Assembly: GCA_038063755.1 (NCBI GenBank)
Contig: JBBTUL010000012.1
Coordinates: 572-64,571, forward strand
DNA: 64,000 nucleotides
Reading direction: 5' to 3'
DNA from: Patescibacteria group bacterium
GTDB taxonomy: Bacteria > Patescibacteriota > Minisyncoccia > UBA6257 > 2-01-FULL-56-20
Below the pieces are notes generated by a model. That model was not told where the DNA came from and did no database searches. It was given only the letters and a program-made list of their open reading frames with translations. Below are positions 31,776 through 61,138 of the stretch, one piece after another (the stretch's first letter is position 1; the number at the start of each line of letters is the position of its first letter). A program made the translations under genes and the position numbers.

Positions 31776-31783
31776 GAGAGCTG

Positions 31784-40627: not shown

Positions 40628-41671
40628 ATGATAAAATTCAAGAACTTTTTCCGCGGAAAAACATTTTTATATATAGTCACCGCTTTTTCTGTCGGAGTTT
40701 TTTACGTTACGCTTCCATTACCCGCGGAAGCGATTATTTCAGTAAGCCGGTTTTTAGAAATGCATCCGGCGGTCGTCGACCTGAAAGGAATGCCGCGTGA
40801 CATTTTAGGGGGAGAATTTCAAATTAGGAATATTGCCGATCATCGCATTGCGGTGTATCCATTCGTTTACGGAGTCGAAGAAGAAAACGGAGTACAGAAG
40901 TTTTTAGATTCATCACTTGCAGACCAAGCGGAGTCGCTTGCGAATTGGATATCGCTCCATCGCGGCGTCATCATGCTTGATCCCGGAGAAGAGAAAAAAG
41001 TGCAATTTAACTTGCAAATCAATTTGCGAGCAGAGCCCGGGTTCTACCACGCAGTTATCGGGGTTGGCGAAGGTGCGACAAGAGATGATGCCGAGCAAGA
41101 TATTTCTCGCGCAGCAACGCTTGCGGTAAATGTTGAAGTGATAAGCGATGTTCGGGTAGACTTTGCTCTCAAGTCATTCCGAGCGACAAAAACATTTCTC
41201 GTGGGATCATCTCCGGCATTCTCGTACCGCGTCCTAAATAACGGAAATCGGCCAGAAGCTCCTCGTGGTGAGCTTCGAATATATAACCGCCGAGGGAAAG
41301 AGATTTCGTTTATCCCAACGAACACTGAGGGAAAGATTGTCTCGCCAGGCGAGGAAGCACCCTTCTCGGTCAATTCGGAAGCCGTTTTCCCGATTGGAAG
41401 ACATAAGGCGTTTCTCGATGTTTCTTACGGAGAAGAGGGCGGAAAACACCTTACCGATACAGCTTTTTTCTGGGTTTTCCCGCTGATTTGGGTGTTTGCG
41501 GTTGGAGTGCTGTTTTTCGCGATTATCATAGCCGCCATTGCTTTACACTATATATATGAGCGACGGCACAGGAAAACGGTCCAGATGCACCCCATGAGGC
41601 CATATGCCCACGACATTATCGACCTTCGCAGGGGCGCGGGGCAAACAAGAGACAAGAACGGAAATGAATAG
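40628..41671 (+). CDS. membrane-anchored surface protein, paralog family A (signal peptide + two beta-sandwich domains with N-x-G-N motif + C-terminal TM)
   Basis: Signal peptide, then ...VLNNGNRPEAPRGELRIYNRRGKEISFI..., then C-terminal TM FFWVFPLIWVFAVGVLFFAIIIAAIAL and a basic tail. Paralogous to the proteins at 41664, 44389 and 60191. Confidence 0.6.
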   Translation: MIKFKNFFRGKTFLYIVTAFSVGVFYVTLPLPAEAIISVSRFLEMHPAVVDLKGMPRDILGGEFQIRNIADHRIAVYPFVYGVEEENGVQKFLDSSLADQAESLANWISLHRGVIMLDPGEEKKVQFNLQINLRAEPGFYHAVIGVGEGATRDDAEQDISRAATLAVNVEVISDVRVDFALKSFRATKTFLVGSSPAFSYRVLNNGNRPEAPRGELRIYNRRGKEISFIPTNTEGKIVSPGEEAPFSVNSEAVFPIGRHKAFLDVSYGEEGGKHLTDTAFFWVFPLIWVFAVGVLFFAIIIAAIALHYIYERRHRKTVQMHPMRPYAHDIIDLRRGAGQTRDKNGNE

Positions 41672-42983
41672 AATCCATCGCGTGCGCAGAGGGACGATTG
41701 CAGGTGTTATTCTTTTTTGCCTAATTACGTTTTCTCCCTTATCGCTTTTCGCCGCGGAAAAAGTTTCCCTCACCATCACCCCGCCGCTTTTTCAACTGAA
41801 CGTAAAACCTGGAGATTTCTGGTCGAGCTCAGTGAGGGTGATAAACGCGAATAACGCGCCACTCACTTTATATGCTCGTGTGTACGGATTTATCGCAGAG
41901 GGAGAAGACGGACACGGAGATTTTATTTCTATTAGCGAGGGTGCGAATGGAGACGACGCGATGCTTGCGCGATGGATTAATCTTCAAGAAAAAGAAATAG
42001 AACTTTCTCCTGGTGCAAGTGGAGAGATTCCATTTACCATTTCGATTCCAAAAAGCGCTCCTCCTGGAGGGCAGTATGCAGCAATCCTTGTTGGAACCGC
42101 TCCGCCGGAGTTTTCATCGGTGGGACCGGCAATGCTTGTCTCTGGATCTGTGTCGTCTCTTCTGTTTGTCCGGATCGATGGAGACGTGCGCGAGGAAGGG
42201 GTGATTAGAGAATTCGTCACCGAGGAAAGTGTTTATCAATCGCCAAGAGCAAATTTTTCTGTTCGCTTTGAAAATCTTGGAAATGTTCATCTGCGTCCGC
42301 AGGGCGATATCACGATCTATAATATGTGGGGAAAAGAACGCGGAAGGATACTGGTTAACCAACAGACAGATTTTGGAAATGTTCTTCCGAAGAGCACGAG
42401 AAAATTCGCCTTCGAATGGATTGGAGAGAGCAACCTCTTTGAAGCGGGAAGGTATCGCGCCGTCGCAACGCTGGCCTACGGCCGCGACGCGCGACAAAAT
42501 GTCTCGCGATCAGTCACTTTTTGGGTTATTCCGACGAAAGAGACCATCGCGGTTTTCGGAAGTCTCATTTTTGGAGTATGGTGCCTTATTCTTCTTATTC
42601 GAAGGTACGTCCGACGCGCACTTAGGCTGGAAATGGTGCGTCGCGGAATGCATGATGGGATAAACGGGCATGATGTTTCTCGTCTGCGTGATGAAAAACC
42701 ATTGTTGCGACCGGAAGTTCTCCTAAGACCGCTTGAGATTGGCATCGTTGATCTTCGAAAAACAAAAGAAGCACTTGAAAAAACAGAAAGCAAAAACAAA
42801 AAACTCATTGCAAGGGGCTTGCTCAGGAAATACGTTCTTGTTCTTGTTTTTATCCCGACAGCTTTATTTTTGATTCTTTGGTTCTTTGTATATTTTAAAG
42901 AGGTTCTCGTGAAAGAGAGAGTGTTCGAGATCAACATACAAAAAGAAAGCTCATCTCTCGCGCAGAGCCGAGCAATAGTCTAG
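41664..42983 (+). CDS. membrane-anchored surface protein, paralog family A
   Basis: RIDGDVREEGVIREF...FENLGNVHLRPQGDITIYNMWGKERGRIL, plus a C-terminal TM and a second TM near the end. An 8-nt overlap with the upstream paralog suggests an operon. Confidence 0.6.
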   Translation: MNRIHRVRRGTIAGVILFCLITFSPLSLFAAEKVSLTITPPLFQLNVKPGDFWSSSVRVINANNAPLTLYARVYGFIAEGEDGHGDFISISEGANGDDAMLARWINLQEKEIELSPGASGEIPFTISIPKSAPPGGQYAAILVGTAPPEFSSVGPAMLVSGSVSSLLFVRIDGDVREEGVIREFVTEESVYQSPRANFSVRFENLGNVHLRPQGDITIYNMWGKERGRILVNQQTDFGNVLPKSTRKFAFEWIGESNLFEAGRYRAVATLAYGRDARQNVSRSVTFWVIPTKETIAVFGSLIFGVWCLILLIRRYVRRALRLEMVRRGMHDGINGHDVSRLRDEKPLLRPEVLLRPLEIGIVDLRKTKEALEKTESKNKKLIARGLLRKYVLVLVFIPTALFLILWFFVYFKEVLVKERVFEINIQKESSSLAQSRAIV

Positions 42984-43018
42984 GACAGAGAAGGCGAAAA
43001 AGGAGGATTCGTGCAGGG

Positions 43019-43082
43019 TGTGGATAACTTGCGCATTTTGTGTGTACAAAGTTGCTATACTTAATTTAAGGCAAGTTATCCA
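43019..43082. promoter_or_regulatory. 12-bp inverted repeat TGGATAACTTGC / GCAAGTTATCCA (38-nt spacer) containing a perfect DnaA-box 9-mer
   Basis: The arms are at 43021-43032 and 43071-43082. tgtggataa (43019-43027) is the reverse complement of TTATCCACA. It lies upstream of the 43136 gene. The same TGTGGATAACTT 12-mer recurs at 58231-58242. Confidence 0.4.
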
Positions 43083-43135
43083 TTGCCGAAAAGGAAAGGT
43101 CGTCGGTATATTACCGCAATAACATTTAAAATTTC

Positions 43136-44260
43136 ATGACAGACGTACGTTTCATAGGAAAAGAAAAAATGGAGCTTATTGCGATCGCTCTTATTGTGAG
43201 CTTGGTAATGTGGACGGCTGGATTCTCTCTCTGGGTGCGTCACGCCGAAGCCGCAAACCTCACAAACGTAAGCGACGTATTAAGCAGTTCTGACCTCGGA
43301 GTGGTTGCAACGCATACAATTCAATACACCAATGCGACAACCACGATTTCCGGCCAGACGATCCGAATCACATTCGATCCAACAACCGACGCCTTTGGTG
43401 GCATACAAAGCCTTGTAACATCGAGCGTCACGTTTTCCGGAGCAAGCCTTGTGGGAACCTGTACGGGTGCCGCAAGCGAAGTGACGCTCACGACAAGCAC
43501 CGCGGCAAATGACGAAAGCGTTATTTTCACCGTGTGCGCGGGTGATACGGTTTCGGCTGGAGCAAAGACAATTACAATCAATGGGACTATTACGAATCCC
43601 GTGGGAGCAGGTTCTTATATTGTCCGCATTGCAGGAACACAGGACAATTCTGCTGACACGCGAGTCGCAATCATAAGCAGCGTAACGGTAACCGCTTCGG
43701 TTGATACAAGCTTCACGTTCACTATCGCAGCGGTAGCAACTGGAACGGATGTGAACGGGACGACCACAACCGCAAACAGCACCGCAACGGCAATCAACTT
43801 TGGAACTCTAGTTCCTGGACAAGCAAAGTTTATTGCTCAAGAGCTTTCGGTTACGACAAACGCAAAAAACGGATTCATAGTTACCGTAAAAGAAAATCAA
43901 AATCTTCTCTCCTCAACAGGAGCCGACATAGATCTCTTTAAGGACGGAAGCTCAATAGCAGCGCCGACCGCGTGGACGTCTCCACTCGGAACTCTCGATC
44001 AAGAGAATACTTACGGCCACATTGGTCTTACGAGCGAAGACTCAGATTTAAACGGTGATGAGTTTGCAGCAGGTCTCTACGCTGGAAACTTCCAAGCGAC
44101 ATCAAGCAGGCAGGTTTTCTCGCACACTGGACCGGCTGACGGAACGACTGCTGACAAGGGACTTACTCAGGTCGGCTATCGCATCCAGGTCACCGCACTC
44201 CAAGAAGCTGCGAACGACTACACGAATACGCTTACCTACGTGGCAACCCCGACCTTCTAG
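43136..44260 (+). CDS. secreted Thr-rich protein carrying the shared C-terminal pilin/WxL-like beta module
   Basis: Signal/TM with cleavage-like AEA-AN. Body INFGTLVPGQAKFIAQELSVTTNAKNGFIVTV aligns to IPFGVLAFGADRKAAHRLTITTNATDGYRVFL of the 37080 protein. The terminal strand is DYTNTLTYVATPTF. Confidence 0.55.
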   Translation: MTDVRFIGKEKMELIAIALIVSLVMWTAGFSLWVRHAEAANLTNVSDVLSSSDLGVVATHTIQYTNATTTISGQTIRITFDPTTDAFGGIQSLVTSSVTFSGASLVGTCTGAASEVTLTTSTAANDESVIFTVCAGDTVSAGAKTITINGTITNPVGAGSYIVRIAGTQDNSADTRVAIISSVTVTASVDTSFTFTIAAVATGTDVNGTTTTANSTATAINFGTLVPGQAKFIAQELSVTTNAKNGFIVTVKENQNLLSSTGADIDLFKDGSSIAAPTAWTSPLGTLDQENTYGHIGLTSEDSDLNGDEFAAGLYAGNFQATSSRQVFSHTGPADGTTADKGLTQVGYRIQVTALQEAANDYTNTLTYVATPTF

Positions 44261-44388
44261 TCGAGACGAAGCGGCAAACGTGTTTGACTTGTACCCCCGC
44301 CAGGAATGGCGGGGGTATGTCTTTTGTGATATAATCTCTACATTCAAGGCCGAGCGAATGGTGATCACCCGAAATAATTAAACGAAAA

Positions 44389-45480
44389 ATGAAACATATT
44401 TTACGATTTTGCCTGGTTTTCTGTGTTTTTCTGTTGTTTGTCGCCGTGTTTAACGTCTCGTCGGTTGCATTGGGGCAGGAGAGGGTAGGGGCAAAAGTCC
44501 AGCCAGCTTTTATCGACGGTCCCGAGGCGCGAATCGACCCTGGGAGCTCAAAGAACTATGTTTTGAAGGTAACCAACCTCGACTCAGAAGAGAAGACATA
44601 TTCTATTGTGACACGAGATATAAAGGGACTTTCCGAATCCGGCGACCCGGTTTTTGCCGATCCAGAAGAGGACATTCTTGCCGGTATAAGTTTGTGGGTG
44701 CGGACAAATAAAAAAATACTAACAGTTGGTCCGGGAGGAACAGGTGAGGTGCTTGCCACAATTTCCGTTCCAAGCGACGCCTCTCCAGGAGGACACTTCG
44801 GAGGAGTTTTCTTTGTTGTTGGAGCGAAGAGCCTGAGCGAAACCGGTTCGGGTGTCGGATATGAAATAGGAACATTAATAAATTTAAGAATTGCAGGGGA
44901 GATCAAAGAAGAGGCGCGGATACGAGAGTTTAGTTCGGAGAAGATGATTTACGGATCGCCAAACGTATTGTTTTCCACGCGCGTCGAAAACTTAGGAAAT
45001 GTTTTGGTGCGCCCCAGGGGTCCAGTTGAGATAACGAGCATGTTTGGGAAAAAGAAAAAAACAATCGTTATGAACGACGAACGTTCGGGTGTGTTCCCTG
45101 GCCAAGAGCGTTCGTTTGAATCTCGCTGGGAGGGAGACGGGTTTTCTTTCGGAAGATATCAGGCGACGATATCTCTCGCTTACGGAGAAGAAGTAAGCAG
45201 GACGATTTCTTCTTCAATCGCGTTCTGGGTTCTACCGCTCAAAACAATCCTTCCGGTTTTTGGGGGGCTCGTCGCTATCATATTGCTCGTGGCGTTCTCG
45301 TTTAAGATATATCTAAAGAGAAGGATAAAAGAATTCGAACAAGCAGGAGCGATTCAGGGAGGAAGCGTTCTTGGCAGAGGAGAGGCACGAACACCGTTTT
45401 CTCGGCTTCTTTTCGTAACGCTCGGAGTAATGTTCTTCGTACTTGTTCTTTTCTTACTGCTCTTCGTTTTCTTTGGATAG
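44389..45480 (+). CDS. membrane-anchored surface protein, paralog family A
   Basis: RIAGEIKEEARIREF...VENLGNVLVRPRGPVEITSMFGKKKKTIV, plus a C-terminal TM (LPVFGGLVAIILLVAF) and a second hydrophobic tail. Confidence 0.6.
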   Translation: MKHILRFCLVFCVFLLFVAVFNVSSVALGQERVGAKVQPAFIDGPEARIDPGSSKNYVLKVTNLDSEEKTYSIVTRDIKGLSESGDPVFADPEEDILAGISLWVRTNKKILTVGPGGTGEVLATISVPSDASPGGHFGGVFFVVGAKSLSETGSGVGYEIGTLINLRIAGEIKEEARIREFSSEKMIYGSPNVLFSTRVENLGNVLVRPRGPVEITSMFGKKKKTIVMNDERSGVFPGQERSFESRWEGDGFSFGRYQATISLAYGEEVSRTISSSIAFWVLPLKTILPVFGGLVAIILLVAFSFKIYLKRRIKEFEQAGAIQGGSVLGRGEARTPFSRLLFVTLGVMFFVLVLFLLLFVFFG

Positions 45481-45484
45481 GCTC

Positions 45485-45877
45485 ATGAAAAAAGAGATAA
45501 GCACACTCGTCCTGGGAGCGCTTACGCTTCTTGCGGGAGGAATTTCGTTTTACGGTGTTTCTGCGCTTACAAAAAATACTTCAGGCGATTTATTTCTCGC
45601 GCAGCTCGGATCGGCCATCGGGATCACGGTTGGCGTGTTGCCAAACGAGGCGAACACGCTCCTTGCGCAGCTAAAGGAAAAAGAACAAGCGCTTGATGTG
45701 CGAGAGCAAAATATTTCATTTCGAGAAGCGGAGTTGCGTGGAGAGTCCGCGCTGGACGAAGCCGAGTACTACGGACGAGTAGTAAAAGCTTTAATAGCGG
45801 CGGTGTGCGCCCTTCTTGTGCTTGTGGCCGTGAACTTTTGGTTTGACCATCGACGCTCCCGAAAGGAAAGAGCATAA
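45485..45877 (+). CDS. small two-TM hypothetical protein with central coiled coil
   Basis: MKKEISTLVLGALTLLAGGISFYGVSAL is an N-terminal TM, and there is a C-terminal TM. It starts 4 nt after the preceding gene. Confidence 0.4.
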   Translation: MKKEISTLVLGALTLLAGGISFYGVSALTKNTSGDLFLAQLGSAIGITVGVLPNEANTLLAQLKEKEQALDVREQNISFREAELRGESALDEAEYYGRVVKALIAAVCALLVLVAVNFWFDHRRSRKERA

Positions 45878-45884
45878 TATTTGG

Positions 45885-47609
45885 ATGAAAGACAGAGTAG
45901 CGAGGCGGCAGGCTCTATTTCTTTTCCTGGCAGCATGCCTCTTTTTTCGTTCGTGGATTGCGCACGGAGCAATCATTCCCTATATAAACGATACTATTTC
46001 TACGTCAGAGCCGGGAGCGGCGGCAGACCAAACGATTGTGTTTCAAGTCGCAAGAAGCGTTCCGCCTGGAGGAGCGATCGTGATTACGCCGCAGGCAGGA
46101 GCGTTTTCGATTCCTTCTGATCTTGATGCGACAGATGTTGATTTTGCGACCTCTTCCTCGCCGACGGGAGCTTGGCAAGAACGAGCGCTTTCGTCTTTTG
46201 CGTCAACAACGGCAGACGAGGTGAGCGTCGTTTCGGGGAGTTTTGGATCTATCACGATCACCCTTTCCTCCGGAGAGGGGCTTGAGGCCGGTATTTTTTC
46301 GCGAGTTAAAGTTGGACTACATGCAGAATCAGGGGACGCAGGGGACAAGCAGATAACAAACTCAACTTCTACCGGTTCATACCGAATATTTGTCGAAACG
46401 AGAAGCAGCACGTCTTCGCTCATCGATCAGGGAACAACGATGATTGCGATTGTTGCGCCAATAAATTCCGGAGCAGGAAGAACGGATTTCGATCCACCGC
46501 TTAGATCAAACGGTCTTCCGGCGAGCGCGCTTCCTGGAGGAACCTCTAACGTAGAAATATCACTTAATACTGATGAGCTTGCATTTTGTAGATACGCAAC
46601 ATCATCGGGAATTGCGTATGCGGGCATGGTGAATTATTTTTCGAACACGACAAGCACGCTTCATTCGATGGTTATCACGGGACTTGCAAGCGGAGCGGCG
46701 TATTCTTTCTACACGCGATGCGGCGATCTTTTCGGAAACAACAATCCGGACGACTTCGAAATTGCATTTACAATCGACCCGCCGCTTCCTCCGCCTCCAT
46801 CCGGACAAGGAACCGTTGTTGGCGGGACGGGCGCAGGTAGTGGAGGCGGGGGTGGCGCTCCGTTTCCGGTACCGCTCGGGCAGCCATCGGTAACATTTAA
46901 AGGAAGAGCATATTCGTCCGCAGAGGTCATCCTATTAAAAGACGGGAAACAAGAGAAGCAAGTGTTTGCCGATAGCGAAGGAGTTTTTGAGTTGACCGCG
47001 CAAAATCTTTCGCAGGGAGTTTATGGGTTTTCTCTTTTTGCGGCCGATTCGAAGGGAAGAAAGTCGGGATCATACGGAACGACCCTTACTCTTGTTTCCG
47101 GAACGCGTAATGTGATTTCAAATATATTCCTTCCGCCCACCATAGGAGCGCTTCGGACAAACCTCAAAAAAGGTGAGCAATTATTAGTTGAAGGACAAAC
47201 CATTCCGCACGCAACCCTCGAAGTGCTTCTCTATAGGCGTTCAGATGCCGCACAGCTTGAGCAGAAGGCGCTGAAGTACAGCGCAACAGCAAAAAGCAGC
47301 GGTGCTTGGCAATTCGTCATTCCAACAGTCTCTCTTTCGGAAGATGTCTATGAGGTCAGGGCTCGAGCGACATCCGATGATATTGGAACAAGTATCTTGG
47401 GTTCTCCTATTGCGGTGGGAGTTGGGCGAGACGTAGGTGCTTCTGCTTCAAAGAGCGCAGACTTCAATCGGGATGGGAGAGTAAATCTTGTAGACTTCTC
47501 GATTTTTCTTGTGTATTTAAACGGAAAAAACGTCGAAGGTGATTTAAACGATGATGCAAAGGTAAACATCGCGGATTTTAGCATCCTGCTCTTCCAGTGG
47601 ACCGGGTAA
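45885..47609 (+). CDS. secreted multi-domain protein with C-terminal tandem dockerin-type calcium-binding repeats
   Basis: Signal peptide, Ig/Fn-like repeats and a poly-Pro/Gly linker. The C-terminus DFNRDGRVNLVDFSIFLVYL...DLNDDAKVNIADFSILLFQW is two dockerin segments (D-x-N-x-D-G-x-V-N-x-x-D + helix). Confidence 0.6.
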   Translation: MKDRVARRQALFLFLAACLFFRSWIAHGAIIPYINDTISTSEPGAAADQTIVFQVARSVPPGGAIVITPQAGAFSIPSDLDATDVDFATSSSPTGAWQERALSSFASTTADEVSVVSGSFGSITITLSSGEGLEAGIFSRVKVGLHAESGDAGDKQITNSTSTGSYRIFVETRSSTSSLIDQGTTMIAIVAPINSGAGRTDFDPPLRSNGLPASALPGGTSNVEISLNTDELAFCRYATSSGIAYAGMVNYFSNTTSTLHSMVITGLASGAAYSFYTRCGDLFGNNNPDDFEIAFTIDPPLPPPPSGQGTVVGGTGAGSGGGGGAPFPVPLGQPSVTFKGRAYSSAEVILLKDGKQEKQVFADSEGVFELTAQNLSQGVYGFSLFAADSKGRKSGSYGTTLTLVSGTRNVISNIFLPPTIGALRTNLKKGEQLLVEGQTIPHATLEVLLYRRSDAAQLEQKALKYSATAKSSGAWQFVIPTVSLSEDVYEVRARATSDDIGTSILGSPIAVGVGRDVGASASKSADFNRDGRVNLVDFSIFLVYLNGKNVEGDLNDDAKVNIADFSILLFQWTG

Positions 47610-47651
47610 GCGAAAAGAGAGGATTCTTCCTATGATATACTATGAGTAACG

Positions 47652-48158
47652 ATGACTTCGTTTCTCGAAAAACTGAACGAAAAACTTGGGAAAACCGTTA
47701 CGCAGACCGCGAAACCTGAGGGCGGTGAGACGGCTGGTCCAGAAGTGGCGCGACAAGAGGTGTTTACAAAAAACACCGACCTTCCCGCGGATATATATCA
47801 AAATCCAACACACATTATCGTTTATATTCCTGCCGCAGGGGTACATCCGCAGGATTTCGAAGTTGTCCTTGACGAAGAGCATGATCTTTTAACGATTCGA
47901 GGATTGAGGACAAGACCACAAGACGTTGCTGGTATCGAAAAGGACGAAGATGGGCATTTCATTTCTCAGGAGTGCAAGTGGGATTCACTATTTAGAAAAA
48001 TAATACTTCCTGCCGAAGTTGATCCATCTCGCGTCGAGGCTATTTTTACAAAGGGAGTGCTGGTGATTAAGCTCCCCATATTAAAACCAGGAGAGGGCGT
48101 AAAGCTTCGCGTGAAAGAAGTGGAAAGCCCGGCAAAGACCGTTCAAAAAGCGACATGA
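47652..48158 (+). CDS. Hsp20/alpha-crystallin family small heat-shock protein
   Basis: Alpha-crystallin domain (FEVVLDEEHDLLTIRG...IILPAEVDPSRVEAIFTKGVLVIKLP). Confidence 0.8.
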   Translation: MTSFLEKLNEKLGKTVTQTAKPEGGETAGPEVARQEVFTKNTDLPADIYQNPTHIIVYIPAAGVHPQDFEVVLDEEHDLLTIRGLRTRPQDVAGIEKDEDGHFISQECKWDSLFRKIILPAEVDPSRVEAIFTKGVLVIKLPILKPGEGVKLRVKEVESPAKTVQKAT

Positions 48159-49942: not shown

Positions 49943-49970
49943 ACTTGAGGCATAACGCCCATGACAAGTT

Positions 49971-51410: not shown

Positions 51411-51462
51411 GCATTCTTCGGCTTCTCTGTGTCTTGTTCTACAATATAGGAAATAGGCGCTT

Positions 51463-54093
51463 ATGCGCAGTGTCCTTATGAAGAAAGAATTTGTTCATGT
51501 CAGTGTTATAGCTCTCGCCATCGGACTTTTGTGGTTCGGGAGCGTGCGCCTCCTTTTCCTTTCTCCCCCGAACGAGGGGCGCGCTGCCCAGGTGACGATT
51601 GATTCGACCGTGCACACCACGGCGACCACCCACAACGGTACGACGCTTACCGTTGCCTTCACGAGCGATCAGACCGGATACTCATTTTACAGGGACGCGA
51701 GCGGCAGTTGTGGATATCGGAAAACCACCGACGGCGGAGCGACATGGACGACGACCACGACACTCATAGATACGCAGACGGATTGTCTCCGTATCGCGAT
51801 CTGGTATGACCGCTGGACGCCGGGAAACGCCACCGGAACCATTATCCATGTTTCGACGATCGACTCCGGAAGTGACAACGTGTGGTACAACTATCTCGAC
51901 ACATCGGGTGACACGCTCGGAAGCACAACCGCGGTAAACGCGACCGGCATAAATCAAGGAGGAACGTTCGCTGCCGGATCGAATCTTCAGGCGATAACAA
52001 GAGGAACGGACGGAACATTGTATATGGGTGTTCAGGATGCGAGCGATTCGTTCGTGATCCAGTGCACGGGAAGTTGCGTGGCGACATCGGGGAGCTGGAC
52101 GGAGGCCGGGACGAACCCTTTTAGTTTGGCGAACGACTGGCTACTACTCGCGCCCATCACGAACGGGCGCATCCTCGCGGTCCGTTGGAGTCTCACGCTC
52201 GACGATGTGCAGTCTAAAATTTGGACCCCCGCATCGAGCTCGTGGAGCGGAGCGTGGACCAATATCGACACGAACTGTATTCAGAACGGTACCTACGACG
52301 GACACTTCGGTCTTTCAATCAACAAAAATACAAATAGCGTGTTGATGGCCTTCGGTTGCGATCTGAGCACCATTGGAGCGAACAACGACGACATCCGGAC
52401 CGCAATTTTTAACTCGTCGAACAGTACCTGGGCTACCACCACAGATGCGGTTACGAACGATACGAAGGGTATCACCGGAGTAAAGCTCGGACTCGACGAC
52501 AATACCGGAAATATTTATGTGGTTTACAGCGCGAGGGCGACGTCGACCATCTCCACCTCGACGAACGTCTATTATAAGGTTTCGACGAGCACCATGTTGT
52601 CGTGGGGAGCAGAGCAAGGGCCATTAAACACCGCACCCGACGACATATACGGCCTGCGCATCGATGGATTGAACGCGGACAGGATTTACGCGACATGGGT
52701 GGGTGTCACCGCGGACTCGCTTTACGGAAACACCGTTGCCGATCTTGTGCCGACCACATTCGAACAGTCGGGATATCGCTGGTTTACGAATCAAAACGCC
52801 ACAAGCGTGGGGCCTCCATTCGCGCTTCAGAATACATCATCCGTTGCGCCGAGCATCGGCAATCCGTTTCGTTTGCGCATGTTGGTCCATGTCGGAGGCG
52901 ACGGCGCGGACGTAAACAGGGAATCTTTTGATCTTCAGGTCGCGACAAGCACTGCGGGCGGGTGCGACACCGCTTTCTCCGGCGAAACATACGTCGACGT
53001 TTCGACATCGACCGGAGAAATCCGTTTCTACGACAACAGCTCGTCGAGCGACAATACCGCCCTCAAGGCGACATCGACGGATCCGGTTCACGGAATCGAC
53101 ACCGTCGTAAACCAAACCTACGAAGAGGCGAATCCATTCACGAATTCGATAGCGAAAATATTCGGCGGACAGGACGGGAAATGGGACTTCTCGCTCTACA
53201 ACGCATCGGCGACCCCGATGAGCACGTATTGTTTTCGTATTGTGAGGGACGACGGATCCCCTCTAAGTACATATTCGGCCGTTCCCGAAATAACGATAGA
53301 CGACCCGCCATCCGTTTCGGGCGTCGTGCTAAACGATGATACAAATATTGCGCTTACTGAGGGGGTAACGTGGCAGATTTTTGCGAGCGGAACTATTACC
53401 GATAGCAACGGATATGCTGATATCGTCGGCGCGCAAGCAAAAGTATATCGATCCGGCGTAGGACGGTCATGTTCGCCGAATGACAACAACTGCTACCAAG
53501 ATAGTTCATGTTCTCTTGCGGGGTGTTCTGGGACGACGTGCAAGGCTCTTTGTTTTGTGAATGTGCAGTATTTTGCCGATCCGACAGATACCGATACGCC
53601 ATACGAAGCAGAGTCCTGGCTTGCAAGTATTGAAGCCGTTGACGCGCGATCCGCAACAAGCACGGCAACAAGCACGGCGATTGTCGATGTGCTTTCGCTT
53701 CTCGCGCTTGCTGTGACGCCGCAGATAAATTATGGAAGCCTGAGTCCAGGCGCGATTATCGATCCGCTCTCCGCGACATCAAGCGTGTCCGCAAGCGGCA
53801 ATGTTTCGATTGACACAACCCTTTACGGTGCGAACATGACTTCGGGGGCGGAGAGTATCAGCGTCTCGAATGAGCGGTACGCAACCACGTCAATTCCTTT
53901 TTCATCGGGGACAGTGCTTCTTGCAAGTCCGGGAGCCGCGCTCGATTTAAACATTCCAAAAACGTCAACCTCAACCTCACAAGCAAGCTCAACTGTTTTC
54001 TGGGGCATACAGGTTCCACTACCGCAGCCAACCGGAAACTATACCGGCATTAATACGTTTATCGCCACAGAGAACACTCTTCCCTGGCCGTAG
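51463..54093 (+). CDS. giant (876 aa) BNR/Asp-box surface protein, paralog of the 37080 protein
   Basis: Conserved N-domain and a BNR motif (KTTDGGATWTT). Shared internal block DPVHGIDTVVNQTYEEANPFTNSIAKIFGGQDGKWDF, versus DPVHGGHPATAQTYEEANPFTNSISRVASGTDGIWDF in the 37080 protein. Shared C-terminal module ends NYTGINTFIATENTLPWP. Confidence 0.7.
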   Translation: MRSVLMKKEFVHVSVIALAIGLLWFGSVRLLFLSPPNEGRAAQVTIDSTVHTTATTHNGTTLTVAFTSDQTGYSFYRDASGSCGYRKTTDGGATWTTTTTLIDTQTDCLRIAIWYDRWTPGNATGTIIHVSTIDSGSDNVWYNYLDTSGDTLGSTTAVNATGINQGGTFAAGSNLQAITRGTDGTLYMGVQDASDSFVIQCTGSCVATSGSWTEAGTNPFSLANDWLLLAPITNGRILAVRWSLTLDDVQSKIWTPASSSWSGAWTNIDTNCIQNGTYDGHFGLSINKNTNSVLMAFGCDLSTIGANNDDIRTAIFNSSNSTWATTTDAVTNDTKGITGVKLGLDDNTGNIYVVYSARATSTISTSTNVYYKVSTSTMLSWGAEQGPLNTAPDDIYGLRIDGLNADRIYATWVGVTADSLYGNTVADLVPTTFEQSGYRWFTNQNATSVGPPFALQNTSSVAPSIGNPFRLRMLVHVGGDGADVNRESFDLQVATSTAGGCDTAFSGETYVDVSTSTGEIRFYDNSSSSDNTALKATSTDPVHGIDTVVNQTYEEANPFTNSIAKIFGGQDGKWDFSLYNASATPMSTYCFRIVRDDGSPLSTYSAVPEITIDDPPSVSGVVLNDDTNIALTEGVTWQIFASGTITDSNGYADIVGAQAKVYRSGVGRSCSPNDNNCYQDSSCSLAGCSGTTCKALCFVNVQYFADPTDTDTPYEAESWLASIEAVDARSATSTATSTAIVDVLSLLALAVTPQINYGSLSPGAIIDPLSATSSVSASGNVSIDTTLYGANMTSGAESISVSNERYATTSIPFSSGTVLLASPGAALDLNIPKTSTSTSQASSTVFWGIQVPLPQPTGNYTGINTFIATENTLPWP

Positions 54094-54125
54094 GATTCTC
54101 GAAAACTCCTGGTACAATAAGAGGT

Positions 54126-55625: not shown

Positions 55626-55635
55626 TCACGACAAT

Positions 55636-56946
55636 ATGCCAGAACCAATCATCACAGGAAAAGATCTTCGCGTAGTGTACAATCTTGGGAAGTCCAACGA
55701 GTATCTTGCTCTTAAGATCGACGATTTCGAGATATACCCGCAAGAATACATTATTTTATTCGGTCCTTCTGGGTGCGGGAAGTCAACACTGCTTTACTCC
55801 CTTCTTGGGGTTCTTCCCCCGACATCGGGAGAGCTTCTTATCAAAGGTGAGAACCCGTACAAATATTCGGATGCGAAAATGGTTCGTTTCCAGCAGTCGG
55901 TTGTCGGAATCATTTATCAGTCATTTAACCTTATCCCCTCGCTTTCCGTTTTGGACAACGTTGCCTTGCCGAGAATTTTCGCAAATGCACCCAAAGCAGA
56001 ACGCGAACGACAAGGATTCGCACTGCTTCGAAGATTCGGAGTCGAAGCACAGGCGCGCAAGCTTCCAACGTCTCTCTCGGGAGGACAAATGCAGCGTATC
56101 GCCGTTGCCCGTTCGCTCGTAAACGATCCGGAAATACTTTTGGGCGATGAGCCGGTAGGAAACCTTGACAGCGTTTCGACGAAGCAGGTCATGGACACGT
56201 TGGACGAAATCAATATGCGAGATAGAAAAACAATCATTCTCGTTACGCACGATGCGAAGCATTTGCCATATGCGCACCGCGTTTACCACATGAGAGACGG
56301 AAAGATTGTCCGAGAGGTCATTAATCCGGAAAAGCCGCAGATAAAAAAAGTTGAGAAGGGAAAAACGATTTTAACCGAGATCGAAAAGCTTTCACGCATA
56401 TTCCCATATGCAACTCCAGAAGAGCTTCGCGTGAAGAGCATTGTAAACTTTCTGACACAAGAACTTACCTTCGATCAGCTGCAGCGACTGGAGGTTCTTG
56501 TGGAATCTTTTTTGAACGGAAGACTCGAAGAAGCGACATTTTTATGGAGCCTTCGCGCTCCATTCGACAAGGGAGGCGCCGGGGTTCCGGAACGCACCGC
56601 AGAAGAAATGGTTCACCGAGTATCGAAAATCGTCACGGATGCAAGGAATATAAGCAGATTCAGAAGGCGATTCGAAGAGCGTGTGAAGTCCTCGAAACAG
56701 CAGGAAAGAATCATTGATTTAAGAAAAAGCCTACTTGATGCTTACGAAGGGCAAGTAACACTCGAAGAGCTCGGTCGCCTTGAGGGGGCTCTCCAGAGGC
56801 GCGTATCGGGCCTTATGACCCTCGAGGAATTTAGGGAGGAGCTCCACAAGCCGCTTGAGCAGGGCGGGATTGGATTTCACACCTCGACCGCGCATAGATT
56901 TTCTCAACATCTTGAGAAGTTGATTGCGCAAGGAACGCATTTATAA
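55636..56946 (+). CDS. ABC transporter ATP-binding protein (MacB/LolD-type) with about 200-aa helical C-terminal extension
   Basis: Walker A GPSGCGKSTLL, signature LSGGQMQRIAVARSL, Walker B ILLGDEP, and a long extra C-terminal domain of unknown function. Start taken at the first ATG after the upstream gene. Confidence 0.8.
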   Translation: MPEPIITGKDLRVVYNLGKSNEYLALKIDDFEIYPQEYIILFGPSGCGKSTLLYSLLGVLPPTSGELLIKGENPYKYSDAKMVRFQQSVVGIIYQSFNLIPSLSVLDNVALPRIFANAPKAERERQGFALLRRFGVEAQARKLPTSLSGGQMQRIAVARSLVNDPEILLGDEPVGNLDSVSTKQVMDTLDEINMRDRKTIILVTHDAKHLPYAHRVYHMRDGKIVREVINPEKPQIKKVEKGKTILTEIEKLSRIFPYATPEELRVKSIVNFLTQELTFDQLQRLEVLVESFLNGRLEEATFLWSLRAPFDKGGAGVPERTAEEMVHRVSKIVTDARNISRFRRRFEERVKSSKQQERIIDLRKSLLDAYEGQVTLEELGRLEGALQRRVSGLMTLEEFREELHKPLEQGGIGFHTSTAHRFSQHLEKLIAQGTHL

Positions 56947-56947
56947 C

Positions 56948-58156
56948 ATGAGACTAGACGATACCATAAAACTTTCCACGCGCATGTTTAAGACGAATCC
57001 GGCACGTACGTGGCTCACCATCCTCGGTATGGGCGTGGGAACTTCCGCGGTTGTCCTTCTGGTCGGACTTGGATTCGGACTGCAAGGCATTCTTCTCGAG
57101 CAGATTGTTTTTGGAGATACGCTCTTAAGCTTAAACGTTACAAATCCCGGATCTCGCGTAGTGGTTCTTGATCAGTCGCGACTCGAAGAGTTTTTGAAAA
57201 TAGAAAACGTAGAGGACGTCTCGCCGCTCGGAAGCGTTTCGGCGCTCATCACATTCAACAACCTAACCGGAAACATAACGCTTCAAGGAAGCGGACCATC
57301 GTATTTTCGCTACACCGGGACGCTTGCTGACAAAGGAGGAATTTTTAAAAAAGGGGAGGAGGCGGAGGACCGAAACAAAGTTCTTCTTTCTAAAGGAGCG
57401 CTGAAACTTTTTGGAATCGAGAACACAGAAGACGCATTGGGTAAGCCCGTTAGGTTTCGCGCGTTTGTAAAAAATCCGACGAATGGCACGACGCAAGAGG
57501 TTTCGATTGAAAAGGAGTATACCGTGAAGGGAGTAACGAACGATGCAGCTTCGATAATCGCCATGCTCACCCTCGAGGAATTTTCTTCGCAGGTTCCGAT
57601 TTCTTCCTACGAGCGCGTTCAGGTCAAGGTGACGAATAGCAACTTCCTCACTCAAGTACAAGACGCCATTGTGGGGAAAGGGTTCGTGGTAACGGCGCTT
57701 TCAAAAACGGTCGAACAAGCGAATAAAATTTTTAAAGGAGTACAGGCCGTGCTCGCATGTTTCGGAGGAATAGCACTTCTGGTTTCTGCAATCGGAATGT
57801 TTAATACGATGACCGTCACCCTGCTTGAGAGAACGAACGAAATCGGCATTATGCGAACCATTGGGGCATCACCGCGAGACATCAAGATACTGTTTCTTTC
57901 CGAATCGGTTGTCGTGGGATTTTTGGGCGGGGTAATCGGAATACTGATCGGAGTAATAATAGGCGTCGGATTAAACCTGATTTTAAACGCCGTGGCGAGT
58001 CATTTCGGAGGAGTTGCTGTCCGTCTTTTCAGATATCCATGGCTCTTTCTCATTTTTATTGCCACATTTTCCGGCGTAGTGGGGTTCCTGACCGGACTTT
58101 TTCCTGCAAAAAGAGCTTCGGGGCTGAACCCGCTCGACGCAATTCGATATAAGTAG
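56948..58156 (+). CDS. ABC transporter permease, FtsX/MacB-like (N-terminal TM, large extracytoplasmic domain, 3 C-terminal TM)
   Basis: MacB-PCD-like periplasmic region followed by an FtsX domain ending in the GLNPLDAIRYK motif. Starts 2 nt after the ATPase stop. Confidence 0.75.
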   Translation: MRLDDTIKLSTRMFKTNPARTWLTILGMGVGTSAVVLLVGLGFGLQGILLEQIVFGDTLLSLNVTNPGSRVVVLDQSRLEEFLKIENVEDVSPLGSVSALITFNNLTGNITLQGSGPSYFRYTGTLADKGGIFKKGEEAEDRNKVLLSKGALKLFGIENTEDALGKPVRFRAFVKNPTNGTTQEVSIEKEYTVKGVTNDAASIIAMLTLEEFSSQVPISSYERVQVKVTNSNFLTQVQDAIVGKGFVVTALSKTVEQANKIFKGVQAVLACFGGIALLVSAIGMFNTMTVTLLERTNEIGIMRTIGASPRDIKILFLSESVVVGFLGGVIGILIGVIIGVGLNLILNAVASHFGGVAVRLFRYPWLFLIFIATFSGVVGFLTGLFPAKRASGLNPLDAIRYK

Positions 58157-58230
58157 TTTTTGTGTTCAGCCTTCTTCCGCTCTTCCTCTTGCGAGGGGAA
58201 AGTGCTTATTTTCCGAAATAAAAGACCGGA

Positions 58231-58242
58231 TGTGGATAACTT
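58231..58242. promoter_or_regulatory. second copy of the TGTGGATAACTT motif, upstream of the 58290 gene
   Basis: Exact 12/12 identity with 43019-43030. It lies about 50 nt upstream of the start codon. Confidence 0.3.
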
Positions 58243-58289
58243 CTGGATTTCCTGTGTGTTAAGATAAGGCTATAAGGAATTTTGAAAGA

Positions 58290-60110
58290 ATGAACGAAAG
58301 AAAAGCAGGAAAAATAACGATTTCAGTTGTGCTTGTCAGCGCAATTATATTCGTTTCGGCAATGGCCATTCGGTTTTCTCCGTTCGTTCCGGTTCATTTA
58401 AGTAGCGTAAATGCGGATACCGCAACAACGAGCGTGACGGTAGTAAACACTCCGCCGAATTGGAGCGTGGATGCGCAGGAATATGTTGTGTCATCGACGA
58501 GTACGCCGACAAATGCAAGCTCCACGGTAACCTGGGTCGGTACGGCCATCGACGACAACAGCGAAAACTATTATTTATTGCTTTGCAAGACGACCTCAAC
58601 CCCAACCGCAAACGCGAGCGCCGCGCCTACTTGTGCCGGCGGGGCATCGAATCAATGGGGAGTCTCTCCTTCAACAATAAGTAGCATTCAGGCTACCACC
58701 ACCTATATTGCCAAGGTGACAGATGTTGAGGCAAACGACTGGTATGCCTGGATATGTGATGGAAACCCCGCAAATCCCCGTTGTAATACCACATACAAAA
58801 CAGGAACCGGCAATACCGCCTCCCCCTTTGTGGTGAACCATCGGCCGGCATTTACCTCTTTTGTTGACGATTCGCCCAAAAACCCAGGCGACACGGTTAC
58901 TTGGACTTCAGTATCAAGCGATGCCGATGTTTATGGCGGACAAGATCTAGTAACGCTCTATGTGTGCAAGGCAAGTGATTTTAATGGAACAGCATGTGGT
59001 GCAGGCGGAACATATTGCACTTCGAGTGCAACATCTTCCAATCCAACCTGCAACTTCGCGCTTGAAAATCCGAAGCAAGACACGAACTACTCCGCGTATG
59101 GTTATGTAATCGATAACCATAATTTCGCGGCGCTGGGCGGATCACATGGATCCGATTCGTCGATTACTATTTCAAACGTTGCGCCAAGCATCGCGTCTTC
59201 GAGCATACAACTTCTTGACACCGATGAAGCAGGAGGGCTTACGCTTACGAGTCCTTCGGCACAAACTAGCGGTTTTAAAGTTAAGCTTACCGTGACAGAC
59301 AACAATAGCTGTCAAAACGCATCCGCAGGACAGGAGATCGCCTCAGCGCTTGTTAATGTGTATCGATCGGGTATTGGACAGGCAGGCTGTCAGACGAGTG
59401 GAAATTATAACGCAAATAATTGTTATGCGGGAGCAGTCAGTACTTCAACCTGGAATGTTTCCTGCACGCAAGATGGAGGATCGTGTTCTGGCGGATCTGA
59501 TTCAACGGCGACCTGGACGTGTACTTTCCCACTCTGGTTTCTCGCAGATCCGACCGACGGCTCTTCGCTTACCGACTCAACATGGTTTGCCGAAAACTGG
59601 CTTCCTTCAGTTCGTGTGACGGACGACAATACTGCAACGAGCACACTCACCGAAGCAAGCTCTGGAAACGAGGTGTTGAGCTTTATGGCGTATACGCTCA
59701 ATACTTCGCAAATCAGCTATGGCTCTCTTGAACCAGGACAGAGGAACGATCCCGTCTCTCAGACAACACTTTTTTCGGCTACCGGAAACGTTGGGCTTGA
59801 CCAAACGCTCTATGGAAACGATATGTGTACAACATATCCAAGCTGCAATCCTGTAAGCACCACATCAACCATTCCCAAGGGGAAACAGCACTATGCGACC
59901 TCAGGTCTTGCCTACGCCTCGGCCATAGCGCTTATAGTGGATCCGGGAGCAGAGCTTGAGCTAAATGTCCTAAAAACGACATCAACGAGCACTCCAGCAA
60001 ATGCAAACACCTTCTGGGGGATCGAAATTCCGTCAAGCATTACTCTCGCAGGAGACTATACCGGCCAAAACACGTTTATTGGGATAAAAGGGGAAGCGCA
60101 AAGCTGGTAG
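58290..60110 (+). CDS. secreted Thr/Ser/Cys-rich surface protein carrying the shared C-terminal beta module
   Basis: Signal peptide. The C-terminal ~170 aa (ISYGSLEPGQRNDPVSQTTLFSATGNVGLDQTLYGNDM...DYTGQNTFIGIKGEAQSW) align with the C-termini of the 51463 and 37080 proteins. Confidence 0.6.
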   Translation: MNERKAGKITISVVLVSAIIFVSAMAIRFSPFVPVHLSSVNADTATTSVTVVNTPPNWSVDAQEYVVSSTSTPTNASSTVTWVGTAIDDNSENYYLLLCKTTSTPTANASAAPTCAGGASNQWGVSPSTISSIQATTTYIAKVTDVEANDWYAWICDGNPANPRCNTTYKTGTGNTASPFVVNHRPAFTSFVDDSPKNPGDTVTWTSVSSDADVYGGQDLVTLYVCKASDFNGTACGAGGTYCTSSATSSNPTCNFALENPKQDTNYSAYGYVIDNHNFAALGGSHGSDSSITISNVAPSIASSSIQLLDTDEAGGLTLTSPSAQTSGFKVKLTVTDNNSCQNASAGQEIASALVNVYRSGIGQAGCQTSGNYNANNCYAGAVSTSTWNVSCTQDGGSCSGGSDSTATWTCTFPLWFLADPTDGSSLTDSTWFAENWLPSVRVTDDNTATSTLTEASSGNEVLSFMAYTLNTSQISYGSLEPGQRNDPVSQTTLFSATGNVGLDQTLYGNDMCTTYPSCNPVSTTSTIPKGKQHYATSGLAYASAIALIVDPGAELELNVLKTTSTSTPANANTFWGIEIPSSITLAGDYTGQNTFIGIKGEAQSW

Positions 60111-60190
60111 TCTTCTTGAGCGAAGAAGATCTAGCGCTCAGGCGTGATTTTCGCGTATAATCAAGGATGTTCGGCTAGGAACATGTTTTT

Positions 60191-61138
60191 ATGACACGAA
60201 CGAAGATTGAATGTACCCGGATTATTTTTCTGTTTGTTTTCGGAGTTATTTTTGCAACGAACACCGCGCTTGCCGGTTTTGGAATTACTCCACCATACGT
60301 GAAGAACGACGGTCTTACCAAAAGCTCACACTACGAACAAAAAATAGTTTTAGTCCGCGGTGATCCCGTGGAAGATCTTCGCGCAAAAATTACCGTGAAC
60401 GTCCCCGGTGCGGACGAGTGGATATCTGTTGATCGCGGACTCGAATTCATGCTTCCCAAAGGAGAGCAGCAAACACCGATCGTTGTAAGCGTTGATGTCC
60501 CTAAAAAAGTAAAATTCGGAGAGTACAAAGGAAACATCCGTGTTGTCATTTCTCCGCTTGGCGGGCCGCAGGCAGGAACCGTTGGGGTCGTGCTCGGTGC
60601 GCAGATCGACGTTGTTTTGAATATTATCGACAAGCAAGTTGCAACATTCCGCGTATGGACCGTAAACATTTCCGATCTCGAAGAAGGAAGGAAAGTTGCA
60701 TGGATGGATTTCCCCGGGAAAATTCGTTTTACTATGCAGATCGAAAACTCCGGAAATGTTGCGATCGCGCCGAGCAGGGTTGAATTTGAAATCCGCGATA
60801 GCCAAGGAAACGTTATCGAAAAGACCCAAAATACTGGTTCAATAAAAAAGCTGCAGCCGTTTGAGGTCAAGCAGGTTATTGCCGAGCTCCCGACGTGGGT
60901 GAAGGCTGGAAACTATACTGTTGGGTACAAAATTTACAACAAAGAGGAGGTGGTCCATTCCGGCGATCTTTCGCTCAGCATCCTTCCGAGAGGTTCGCTT
61001 CCGGGTTATTTGGGATACGGAGTCCTAGGTCTTTCCGTTGGCGATCTCGGAGTTCTCATCCTCATAATAGGAGCGGCGCTTCTCACCCTTGGGGTGGGTA
61101 TCCGCTGGGTCATTCTCCATGTCCGAATTAGGCAATAA
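60191..61138 (+). CDS. membrane-anchored surface protein, paralog family A (fourth copy)
   Basis: Signal peptide, ...IENSGNVAIAPSRVEFEIRDSQGNVIEK..., and a C-terminal TM (LGVLILIIGAALLTLGVGI) with a basic tail. Confidence 0.55.
   Translation: MTRTKIECTRIIFLFVFGVIFATNTALAGFGITPPYVKNDGLTKSSHYEQKIVLVRGDPVEDLRAKITVNVPGADEWISVDRGLEFMLPKGEQQTPIVVSVDVPKKVKFGEYKGNIRVVISPLGGPQAGTVGVVLGAQIDVVLNIIDKQVATFRVWTVNISDLEEGRKVAWMDFPGKIRFTMQIENSGNVAIAPSRVEFEIRDSQGNVIEKTQNTGSIKKLQPFEVKQVIAELPTWVKAGNYTVGYKIYNKEEVVHSGDLSLSILPRGSLPGYLGYGVLGLSVGDLGVLILIIGAALLTLGVGIRWVILHVRIRQ

Follow-up and report, generated by a model that had tools for sequence, protein, structure and literature searches.

A life spent attached to host cells is assumed for bacteria of the candidate phyla radiation (CPR, or Patescibacteria), and to our knowledge their surface machinery is almost unannotated. 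Here we describe four related membrane proteins, A, B, C and D, encoded within a 64,000-nucleotide stretch (the window) of contig JBBTUL010000012.1 from a Patescibacteria group bacterium (assembly GCA_038063755.1). The genes of A, B and C surround that of a small secreted, pilin-like protein, 43136, and the gene of D lies in a separate module; all proteins other than these four are called by the first position of their genes (Table 1). Because their fold is the two-domain one of pilus chaperones and their genes adjoin those of pilin-like subunits, the four most likely take part in building or holding a surface fibre of a type that was first reported between 2023 and 2026.

Two described kinds of protein come closest to them. 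WxLIP consists of two perpendicular Ig-like domains and a transmembrane (TM) helix, and in AlphaFold2 predictions a strand of its hairpin lodges in a gap left open in the beta-sandwich of WxL (Hassan et al., 2023; PMC10599100). The filaments of 'Candidatus Mycosynbacter amalyticus', seen by cryo-electron microscopy, are built of the pilins PamA and PamB, each with an N-terminal domain (NTD) sandwich, a linker strand that it donates to the following subunit, and a C-terminal domain (CTD) that is open; linker and CTD groove are their most conserved parts (bioRxiv 10.64898/2026.03.03.709456). Encoded in the same operon are PamT, the tip protein, PamR, a membrane anchor that is RbmA-like, and PamC and PamD, two-domain proteins of FimC/PapD type that have a C-terminal TM helix and whose strands AlphaFold places in the open pilin CTD (10.64898/2026.03.03.709456). 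As bearers of Pam pili, Saccharimonadia and Microgenomatia were named, and the preprint mentions neither WxL nor DUF916 (10.64898/2026.03.03.709456).

As described, WxLIP and PamC/PamD are both membrane-anchored PapD-fold proteins that complete the beta domain of a partner, and A–D fit both descriptions. Our literature search found no statement joining WxLIP, PamC/PamD and PapD-type chaperones, and this connection is the most interesting by-product of the work. WxLIP (2023) and Pam pili (2026) being known already, what is new here is the presence of divergent members in another CPR class, a second TM helix that is conserved in the B and C types and absent from the descriptions of WxLIP and PamC/PamD, a separate D subfamily without Pfam coverage, and cohesin–dockerin pairs linked to both gene modules. 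The best reading of A–D is as membrane-anchored, two-domain PapD-fold proteins of the WxLIP (DUF916) superfamily. That they are, within this superfamily, the Paceibacteria-type counterparts of the putative chaperones PamC/PamD and act in usher-less fibre assembly has in our estimate a probability of about 0.6.

The four membrane proteins and their family

All four genes lie on the forward strand, and their products have the architecture that a preliminary description of this DNA had outlined: hydropathy reveals in each a signal-like basic and hydrophobic N-terminal segment with an AxA-like site and, around residues 286–312, a hydrophobic 19-mer (Kyte–Doolittle 2.5–3.0) followed by a basic stretch, in agreement with the TM helix then proposed. 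What had been missed is a second TM helix at the extreme C-terminus of B and C, which pairs with the first as a TM hairpin whose cytoplasmic loop is basic (~80 amino acids between TM1 and TM2 in B). Across related loci, one TM helix is present in 36 of 37 A-type proteins, and two in 30 of 37 of the B type and 69 of 75 of the C type; since the two-TM state recurs in this way, the hairpin is a conserved trait. The mature N-terminus of D, GFGITPPY, is invariant in its family.

By BLASTP, A, B and C are unambiguous paralogues (E = 6.8e-24 for A–B, 1.5e-18 for A–C and 3.2e-46 for B–C). Between D and these three the pairwise E-values are only 0.006–0.011, and the kinship emerges from family profiles, A1 (52 sequences of the A/B/C family) and A2 (46 sequences of the D family), which hhalign aligns over 254 columns, taking in both domains and the TM helix, at a probability of 98.3% and E = 2.1e-14. 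The A1 hidden Markov model (HMM) matches the D open reading frame (ORF) at E = 1.8e-6, compared with 8.6e-79 for A itself, and a scan of all ORFs of the window returned exactly four members, A, B, C and D. On these profile comparisons we regard D as a remote but real relative, forming a separate subfamily in a separate gene module, so that the paralogy first proposed holds for all four, closely for A–C and remotely for D.

The motif block noted beforehand also stands, with eight positions invariant in all four proteins (F198, N204, G206, N207, P212, I218, G223 and G257 in A numbering) and N-x-G-N kept without exception in the 52 relatives. In PapD the basic cleft residues R8 and K112 bind the C-terminus of the subunit; no basic residue is invariant across the A–D alignment. 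The four paralogues share ~40% identity with their own relatives, and the family is very large: a profile search against 1.84 billion representative sequences recovered 18,122 clusters at E ≤ 1e-3, of which 2,414 reached E ≤ 1e-30.

The AlphaFold2 model of C, made with a 52-sequence alignment (predicted local distance difference test score, pLDDT, 88.8), bears out the expected beta-sandwich fold for this member, with two all-beta domains (residues 35–168 and 176–281) followed by helices 284–322 and 339–362; a loop within the final hairpin of domain 1 (145–157) is of lower confidence. Compared with the PDB by Foldseek, the model finds WxLIP of Enterococcus faecium first (9i1y_A, E = 6.7e-13; 9i25_C, titled 'bound to long WxL', E = 7.9e-13), in alignments of 257–259 columns to targets of 251–267 amino acids, at TM-scores of only 0.45–0.48; our literature search found no paper for these structures. 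Next in rank stand the chaperone–usher (CU) chaperones CfaA, CsuC, FimC, Caf1M, PapD, DraB, CupB2 and EcpB (E from 2.5e-10 to 5e-7), each aligned to C over ~250 columns covering both domains. Among PDB sequences, EfmWxLIP1 was the sole significant match of profile A1 (E = 1.2e-5, domain 1), and a single-sequence search with C found nothing. The Pfam family PF06030 (DUF916/WxLIP_PGBD) is matched by 43 of the 52 relatives at E ≤ 0.01, at best with 9e-12. Fold, profile and Pfam matches thus support the early suggestion that these are WxLIP-like partner proteins.

A likeness to CARDB and DUF11 adhesion folds had been suggested as well, and this did not survive. CARDB (PF07705) matched D only, at E = 0.068 and 13.8 bits against a cutoff of 22.7, and DUF11 (PF01345) matched one of the 52 relatives below threshold; we rejected membership of either family because every match was sub-threshold. 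As far as these profiles tell, the likeness is that of a generic Ig-type motif only. The family scans gave further sub-threshold Pfam matches to fn3_5, NPCBM_assoc and CopC, weak NCBIfam matches to 'choice-of-anchor T' in 18 of the 52 A/B/C relatives (best 6.6e-4), and a weak PACE-CTERM 'putative S-layer protein' match in D and 5 of the 52. No Pam-named model was matched in the NCBIfam scan of the A/B/C family, and Pfam detected no cohesin or dockerin domain in A–D.

The pilin-like neighbour and its conserved gene order

The 43136 protein, encoded directly upstream of C, resembles PamA and PamB in its NTD sandwich, linker and CTD, and in that the linker and the C-terminal strand are its most conserved parts (conservation 0.76 and 0.85, the highest in the family, as against 0.57 for the NTD). 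Its linker is conserved from residue 175 to 199, and its CTD (193–374) ends in an invariant TPTF; in the AlphaFold2 model (pLDDT 91.4), residues 180–192 of the linker are coil in the monomer. With more than 1327 homologues at 50–70% identity, it is far more conserved than A–D, whose homologues stand at ~40%.

The NCBIfam model NF058581 (CPR_Pam_pilin_C) aligns with residues 217–374 of 43136 (model 3–148 of 148, E = 1.8e-4, 21.6 bits) and with residues 1034–1181 of the large secreted protein 37080 (model 2–148 of 148, E = 7.6e-4, 19.6 bits). Because such matches of ~20 bits lie far below the NCBI cutoff of 55, and only 5 of the 52 pilin relatives reach E ≤ 0.01, we take them as weak evidence, at the sequence level, of distant homology rather than membership. 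The HMM of the 43136 family itself (A3) matches the C-terminus of 37080 at 4e-18, over the CTD only, and the N-terminus of the dockerin protein 45843/45885 at 1.3e-15, over signal peptide and NTD only (residues 28–207 of the 45843 ORF).

PDB sequence searches with 43136, by single sequence and by profile, gave no match, including to the WxL chain of 9i25. Its Foldseek matches were set aside as uninformative, being generic two-Ig proteins aligned at high root-mean-square deviation (integrins, ClfB/SdrG, BslA for one domain, TasA); a chain of the PapC–PapD–PapG complex (6cd2_B) stands at rank 29. In Pfam the 43136 family matches neither a WxL domain nor any other consistent family at E ≤ 1, and no WxL domain was found in the remaining proteins of the cluster (E ≤ 0.1) or in the 58290-type module (E ≤ 10). 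A WxL cluster is defined by at least two WxL-domain proteins (PMC10599100), and with none detected the present cluster falls outside that definition. Of the parallel drawn earlier with csc clusters, the WxLIP-like membrane partners therefore remain, and the neighbouring WxL proteins do not.

In a scan of one genome per GTDB species, 208 species carry an A/B/C-family relative; among the 84 loci annotated by HMM, the pilin gene lies directly upstream of the C-type gene in 75. The full order of large CTD protein, A, B, pilin, C and dockerin protein occurs in 26 loci, with 10 more lacking one flanking gene, and the minimal order of pilin, C and dockerin protein in 32. In 36 loci compared, A and C of the window each match the gene of their own position best in 36 of 36, and B does so in 35 of 36; this position-fixed orthology marks the three as ancient, probably specialised paralogues. 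The suggestion that the four proteins form a chaperone or anchor set, itself offered as an inference, is strengthened by this synteny and by the CU-chaperone fold matches.

The same strictness of order bears on the idea that A–D are independent Ig-domain membrane adhesins of CARDB/DUF11 type, unrelated to their neighbours and merely placed in a surface-protein island. The N-x-G-N motif is common in Ig-like domains of this type, the island is rich in further Ig/FN3 proteins, and the sub-threshold matches listed above (CARDB, DUF11, fn3_5, NPCBM_assoc and CopC) point the same way. We nevertheless think this very improbable: the pilin and C genes keep their order, the orthology of A, B and C is specific to position, D always lies beside a 58290-like gene in loci L085 and L086, CARDB and DUF11 never reach their cutoffs, and the best fold matches over both domains are WxLIP and chaperones, not adhesin domains.

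The titles of the homologues name Paceibacteria, Parcubacteria, Minisyncoccia and Patescibacteria, together with Kaiser-, Sung-, Harrison-, Nomura- and Doudnabacteria. Many others read 'uncultured Candidatus Saccharibacteria' (metagenome-assembled genomes), two 'uncultured Gammaproteobacteria' and several plain 'bacterium'; we suspect that the Saccharibacteria and Gammaproteobacteria titles are generic labels. Protein C is identical to a GenBank protein labelled 'Patescibacteria group bacterium', which places it in a CPR genome.

The genes around 43136 had been described as a tight operon. This is right for A and B, which overlap by 8 nt (41664–41671); on either side of 43136, gaps of 152 nt (upstream) and 128 nt (downstream) loosen the arrangement, and these hold a promoter-like site and a stem-loop (13 bp, 8 of them G-C), the latter 30 nt after the 43136 stop and with the longest stem among the terminator-like sites in the 13.5 kb scanned (35–48.5 kb). 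As a whole, the promoter and terminator scans gave no enrichment over shuffles, and only the position of this strongest stem-loop is noteworthy. A promoter-like site and a strong stem-loop around 43136 alone are consistent with production of this subunit in larger amounts than its chaperones, and the stem-loop may be an attenuator that sets the pilin:chaperone ratio.

Possible roles in fibre assembly or static anchoring

If A–D are counterparts of PamC/PamD, they would, after Sec export, remain tethered to the cytoplasmic membrane via their C-terminal helix or helices, and the last hairpin of domain 1 (residues ~134–168 of C, with the lower-confidence loop at 145–157) would complete the incomplete C-terminal beta domain of a subunit, candidate clients being 43136 as the pilin, 37080 as the adhesin, and 58290 and 51463. 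The hairpin strand would then be displaced by a strand of the next subunit, and the fibre would grow outward from the membrane without an usher. In such a fibre 37080, with adhesin domains and a CTD only, would form the tip and 43136 the shaft. The chain would end with 45885, which has an NTD and a dockerin but no CTD and which the cohesin-TM protein 48155 would hold. The paralogues A, B and C are probably specialised: the major pilin would be the client of C, the large adhesin that of A and B, and the second module would fall to D. One or more paralogues (e.g. D or A) may be a PamR-like terminal membrane anchor, not a chaperone. We infer chaperone–subunit contact, strand exchange, filament formation, the order of assembly and the division of labour among the paralogues. 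Possible, and offered tentatively, is the fuller scheme in which a usher-less strand-exchange fibre has a cohesin-held dockerin base and a parallel second module, and in which WxL/WxLIP (csc), Pam and the present system are branches of one ancient monoderm machinery sharing its PapD-fold chaperone with CU pili.

Likeness to PamC/PamD (WP_260763277.1 and WP_260763284.1, compared by description) lies in the CPR origin, the PapD-like fold and the C-terminal TM helix, and at the level of the operon in the combination of several chaperone-like paralogues with a two-domain pilin-like protein and a larger protein bearing a pilin-CTD-like domain, no usher being noted. Unlike the Pam hosts, the present lineage is Paceibacteria/Parcubacteria-like; NF058581 matches stay below cutoff, and the gene list of the window, judged by reading, has no ATP synthase genes near the cluster. 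Additional to the Pam inventory are the second TM helix of B and C, the cohesin–dockerin pairs, an HSP20 gene and a MacB-type ABC transporter. With the CU chaperones (PapD, FimC, Caf1M, CfaA, CsuC) A–D have in common two Ig-like domains, aligned over ~250 columns, and the proposed role, in which a donated strand caps an incomplete subunit fold; they differ in being membrane-anchored rather than soluble, in the absence of PF00345/PF02753, and in belonging to a cell without an outer membrane. The Pfam and NCBIfam matches of the cluster included no usher-like or outer-membrane component, a component at which no search was aimed.

The role published for WxLIP is a different one. It is there a static, peptidoglycan- or host-binding anchor and no assembly chaperone (PMC10599100), and by analogy A–D would hold neighbouring secreted proteins in stable 1:1 complexes, with no polymerisation or strand exchange, domain 2 possibly contacting peptidoglycan or host. 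The closest solved structure is indeed of a WxLIP crystallised in a stable complex with long WxL (9i25), anchoring by a TM helix is permanent, and several paralogues adjoin several large adhesin-like proteins. RbmA (4kkp_B), whose fold is that assigned to the PamR anchor (bioRxiv 10.64898/2026.03.03.709456), is also among the Foldseek matches of C (rank 40, E = 3e-7). A–D share with PamR/RbmA, compared by description, tandem Ig/FnIII-like domains and a C-terminal TM helix, and the GFGITPPY strand of D could be donated as proposed for PamR, yet in the ranking for C RbmA stands far below WxLIP and the CU chaperones. We consider static anchoring unlikely, since the most conserved partner is small and two-domain, with pilin-like conservation and a weak match to the Pam-pilin CTD; since the promoter- and terminator-like signals of 43136's own suggest its excess over the membrane protein; since each module already encodes a cohesin–dockerin anchoring pair, next to which a second anchor would be redundant; and since three position-fixed paralogues stand around a single pilin gene.

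Besides the published static role and the RbmA match, several results weigh against A–D as PamC/PamD-like chaperones of the WxLIP superfamily. In the window proteins themselves PF06030 stays below its cutoff of 27.3 bits (18.1 bits, E = 0.0028, for B; 12.8 bits for C), and A and D have no match to it at all; PF11797 (DUF3324/WxLIP_HBD) is nearly absent: among the relatives it is matched by 2 of the 52 of A/B/C type (best 0.0042) and by 1 of the 46 of D type (0.081). The HMM support anticipated from DUF916 and DUF3324 thus came from the relatives for the former and hardly at all for the latter. On the side of the partners, the matches to the pilin model are sub-cutoff and sparse, as given above, and neither a WxL nor a CU pilin chain stands among the best 50 Foldseek matches of 43136 listed. 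The C-terminal module common to 58290 and 51463, tried as a relative of the pilin CTD, was not significant (hhalign probability 0.5%, E = 0.12), so that D's client is unproven.

The D family (46 relatives) has no DUF916 Pfam match, and neither PapD_N (PF00345) nor PapD_C (PF02753) was matched in Pfam by the four proteins or their relatives. Set beside WxLIP as described, the CscA-type DUF916–DUF3324–TM proteins of Firmicutes WxL/csc clusters, A–D agree in signal peptide, two Ig-like domains and C-terminal TM helix, in length (315–439 as against ~320–380 amino acids) and in the position of their genes beside those of secreted proteins; in WxL systems, the C-terminal beta domain of these partners is predicted to be completed by the WxLIP strand. 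Apart from their Pfam scores, they differ in that no NQIDKxxxYFDLK motif is visible, in the conserved second TM helix of the B and C types, in partners without a WxL domain, in a CPR host rather than Firmicutes, and in cluster content, with 3 + 1 paralogues per cluster here and cohesin–dockerin genes besides.

If the PamC/PamD-like reading is right, a Pam-like chaperone-assisted pilus would extend from Saccharimonadia/Microgenomatia to Paceibacteria, thousands of 'hypothetical' or DUF916 proteins would gain a testable role as membrane-anchored PapD-fold chaperones, and the Firmicutes work on WxLIP as a static anchor would be joined to donor-strand pilus biology, two literatures without citations of one another.

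Neighbouring genes and the second module

Table 1. Features of the two gene modules, by position in the window.
Feature	Position	Strand	Description
Large secreted protein (37080)	37080..40625	+	1181 aa (amino acids); BNR/sialidase-like N-part, repeated beta domains, pilin-CTD-like region ~1010-1176
Paralogue A	40628..41671	+	347 aa; signal peptide, two beta domains, single TM 286-304, basic cytoplasmic tail
Paralogue B	41664..42983	+	439 aa; A-like ectodomain, TM1 294-312, TM2 391-409
Sigma-70-like promoter match	43083..43112	+	in the 152-nt gap upstream of 43136; 9/12 consensus positions
Pilin-like subunit (43136)	43136..44260	+	374 aa; signal peptide, NTD beta-sandwich ~43-179, linker, C-terminal beta domain
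Stem-loop, terminator-/attenuator-like	44290..44319	+	13 bp (8 G-C), then T tract; 30 nt after the 43136 stop
Paralogue C	44389..45480	+	363 aa; TM1 287-305, TM2 340-358; directly downstream of the 43136 gene
Small membrane protein (45485)	45485..45877	+	130 aa; hydrophobic segments at both ends, coiled-coil-like middle
Dockerin protein (45885)	45885..47609	+	574 aa; signal peptide, pilin-NTD-like domain, Big_13, C-terminal dockerin; no CTD
HSP20/alpha-crystallin (47652)	47652..48158	+	PF00011, 4e-11
Cohesin protein (48155)	48155..49942	+	595 aa; Ig domains, C-terminal TM 488-506
37080 paralogue (51463)	51463..54093	+	876 aa; second-type C-terminal module, common to 58290
MacB-type ABC pair	55636..58156	+	ATPase 55636-56946; FtsX/MacB permease 56948-58156
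Secreted subunit (58290)	58290..60110	+	606 aa; Cys-rich middle, conserved C-terminal beta module ending in W
Paralogue D	60191..61138	+	315 aa; remote superfamily member, one TM 286-304
Cys-rich repeat/Ig/dockerin-like protein (61119)	61119..62288	+	counterpart of 45885
Cohesin protein (62327)	62327..63307	+	326 aa; C-terminal TM 305-323; counterpart of 48155

In the first module the pilin gene is followed by those of C, a small membrane protein, the dockerin protein, HSP20 and the cohesin-TM protein. The small membrane protein 45485, which has no informative Pfam match, has counterparts of like size, 138 aa in L001 and 130 aa in L003, directly after the C-type gene. Big_13 and Dockerin_1 are both matched over cutoff by 45885 (2.3e-7 and 1.2e-5); the dockerin-protein position downstream of the C-type gene is filled in most loci, and the protein is a candidate pilus base or terminator. 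The cohesin protein 48155 (Cohesin 3.2e-5, 24.6 bits against a cutoff of 24.1; Big_13 1.7e-10) is a candidate membrane receptor for it. Between these two, and at the same place in L001/L002 and L085, lies the HSP20 gene, whose product has no signal peptide, a cytoplasmic small heat-shock protein retained amid surface proteins.

The large secreted protein 37080, with weak matches to BNR_2 and BNR_4, is a candidate tip adhesin. Its paralogue 51463 (BLASTP 3e-105 against 37080, 1.8e-34 against 58290) shares with it the weakly BNR/sialidase-like N-region and has an unlike C-module, 58290-like where that of 37080 is pilin-CTD-like, as if one adhesin head had been joined to two assembly modules.

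The second module consists, in order, of an FN3-repeat protein (54126–55625), the ABC ATPase, the MacB/FtsX permease, the 58290-like subunit, D, 61119 and 62327, and parallels the first in layout. A homologous ABC pair (ABC_tran and MacB_PCD/FtsX) is found in L085 and L086, so that its place upstream of the module is conserved; here it lies downstream of the FN3-repeat protein and directly upstream of 58290 and D, and it might be the source of mechanical energy that drives export or release. In both of these loci the 58290-like gene is always directly upstream of the D-type gene. The module shared by 58290 and 51463 gives weak matches (~0.05) to DUF4402 and MrpH_C, which are hints only. The 61119 protein matches myxo_disulf_rpt (1.8e-13) and, weakly, dockerin_GC, is related to the 45843 ORF (BLASTP 3e-33) and has homologues that carry Dockerin_1; 62327 matches Cohesin (9.7e-7, 29.5 bits against the cutoff of 24.1) and 48155 (BLASTP 3.9e-15).

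Each module thus has its dockerin and cohesin-TM pair, kept in L001, L085 and L086, and our literature search found no paper on such pairs in Patescibacteria. They may hold the base of the fibre at the membrane, and suggest a checkable way of fixing a fibre in a cell that has neither an outer membrane nor a sortase signal. In each module, too, subunit and dockerin protein have a strand motif in common at their mature N-termini, VSDT(L/V)(S/T)DS in the first (43136–43300 and 45885–46050) and ATT.VTV in the second (58290–58460 and 61119–61300); these motifs are candidate donor strands or chaperone-recognition strands.

The two cohesin-TM and two dockerin proteins conserved in the cluster could also be taken for a cellulosome-like scaffold or an S-layer, with 43136 as lattice or coat and A–D as membrane pedestals. 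In favour of this, the 43136 family has a great many members, strongly conserved, and D and a few relatives have the weak PACE-CTERM match noted above. This is improbable in our view, given that A–D carry no cohesin or dockerin domain, that in fold they match chaperones and WxLIP, and that the CTD of 43136 matches a pilin model, not S-layer families.

As a whole the window resembles a CPR/Patescibacteria chromosome, with dnaA and dnaN at 2.5–5 kb and many small housekeeping genes. At ~30900–32300, G+C is raised (0.52–0.54) and long ORFs overlap on both strands with no convincing gene among them; Rfam gave no match to the region, even at E ≤ 0.1. The 562-aa protein encoded at 8537–10225 has the look of a GspE/PilB-type secretion or type IV pilus ATPase, with Walker motifs recognized by eye, and on this likeness the genome may also make type IV pili.

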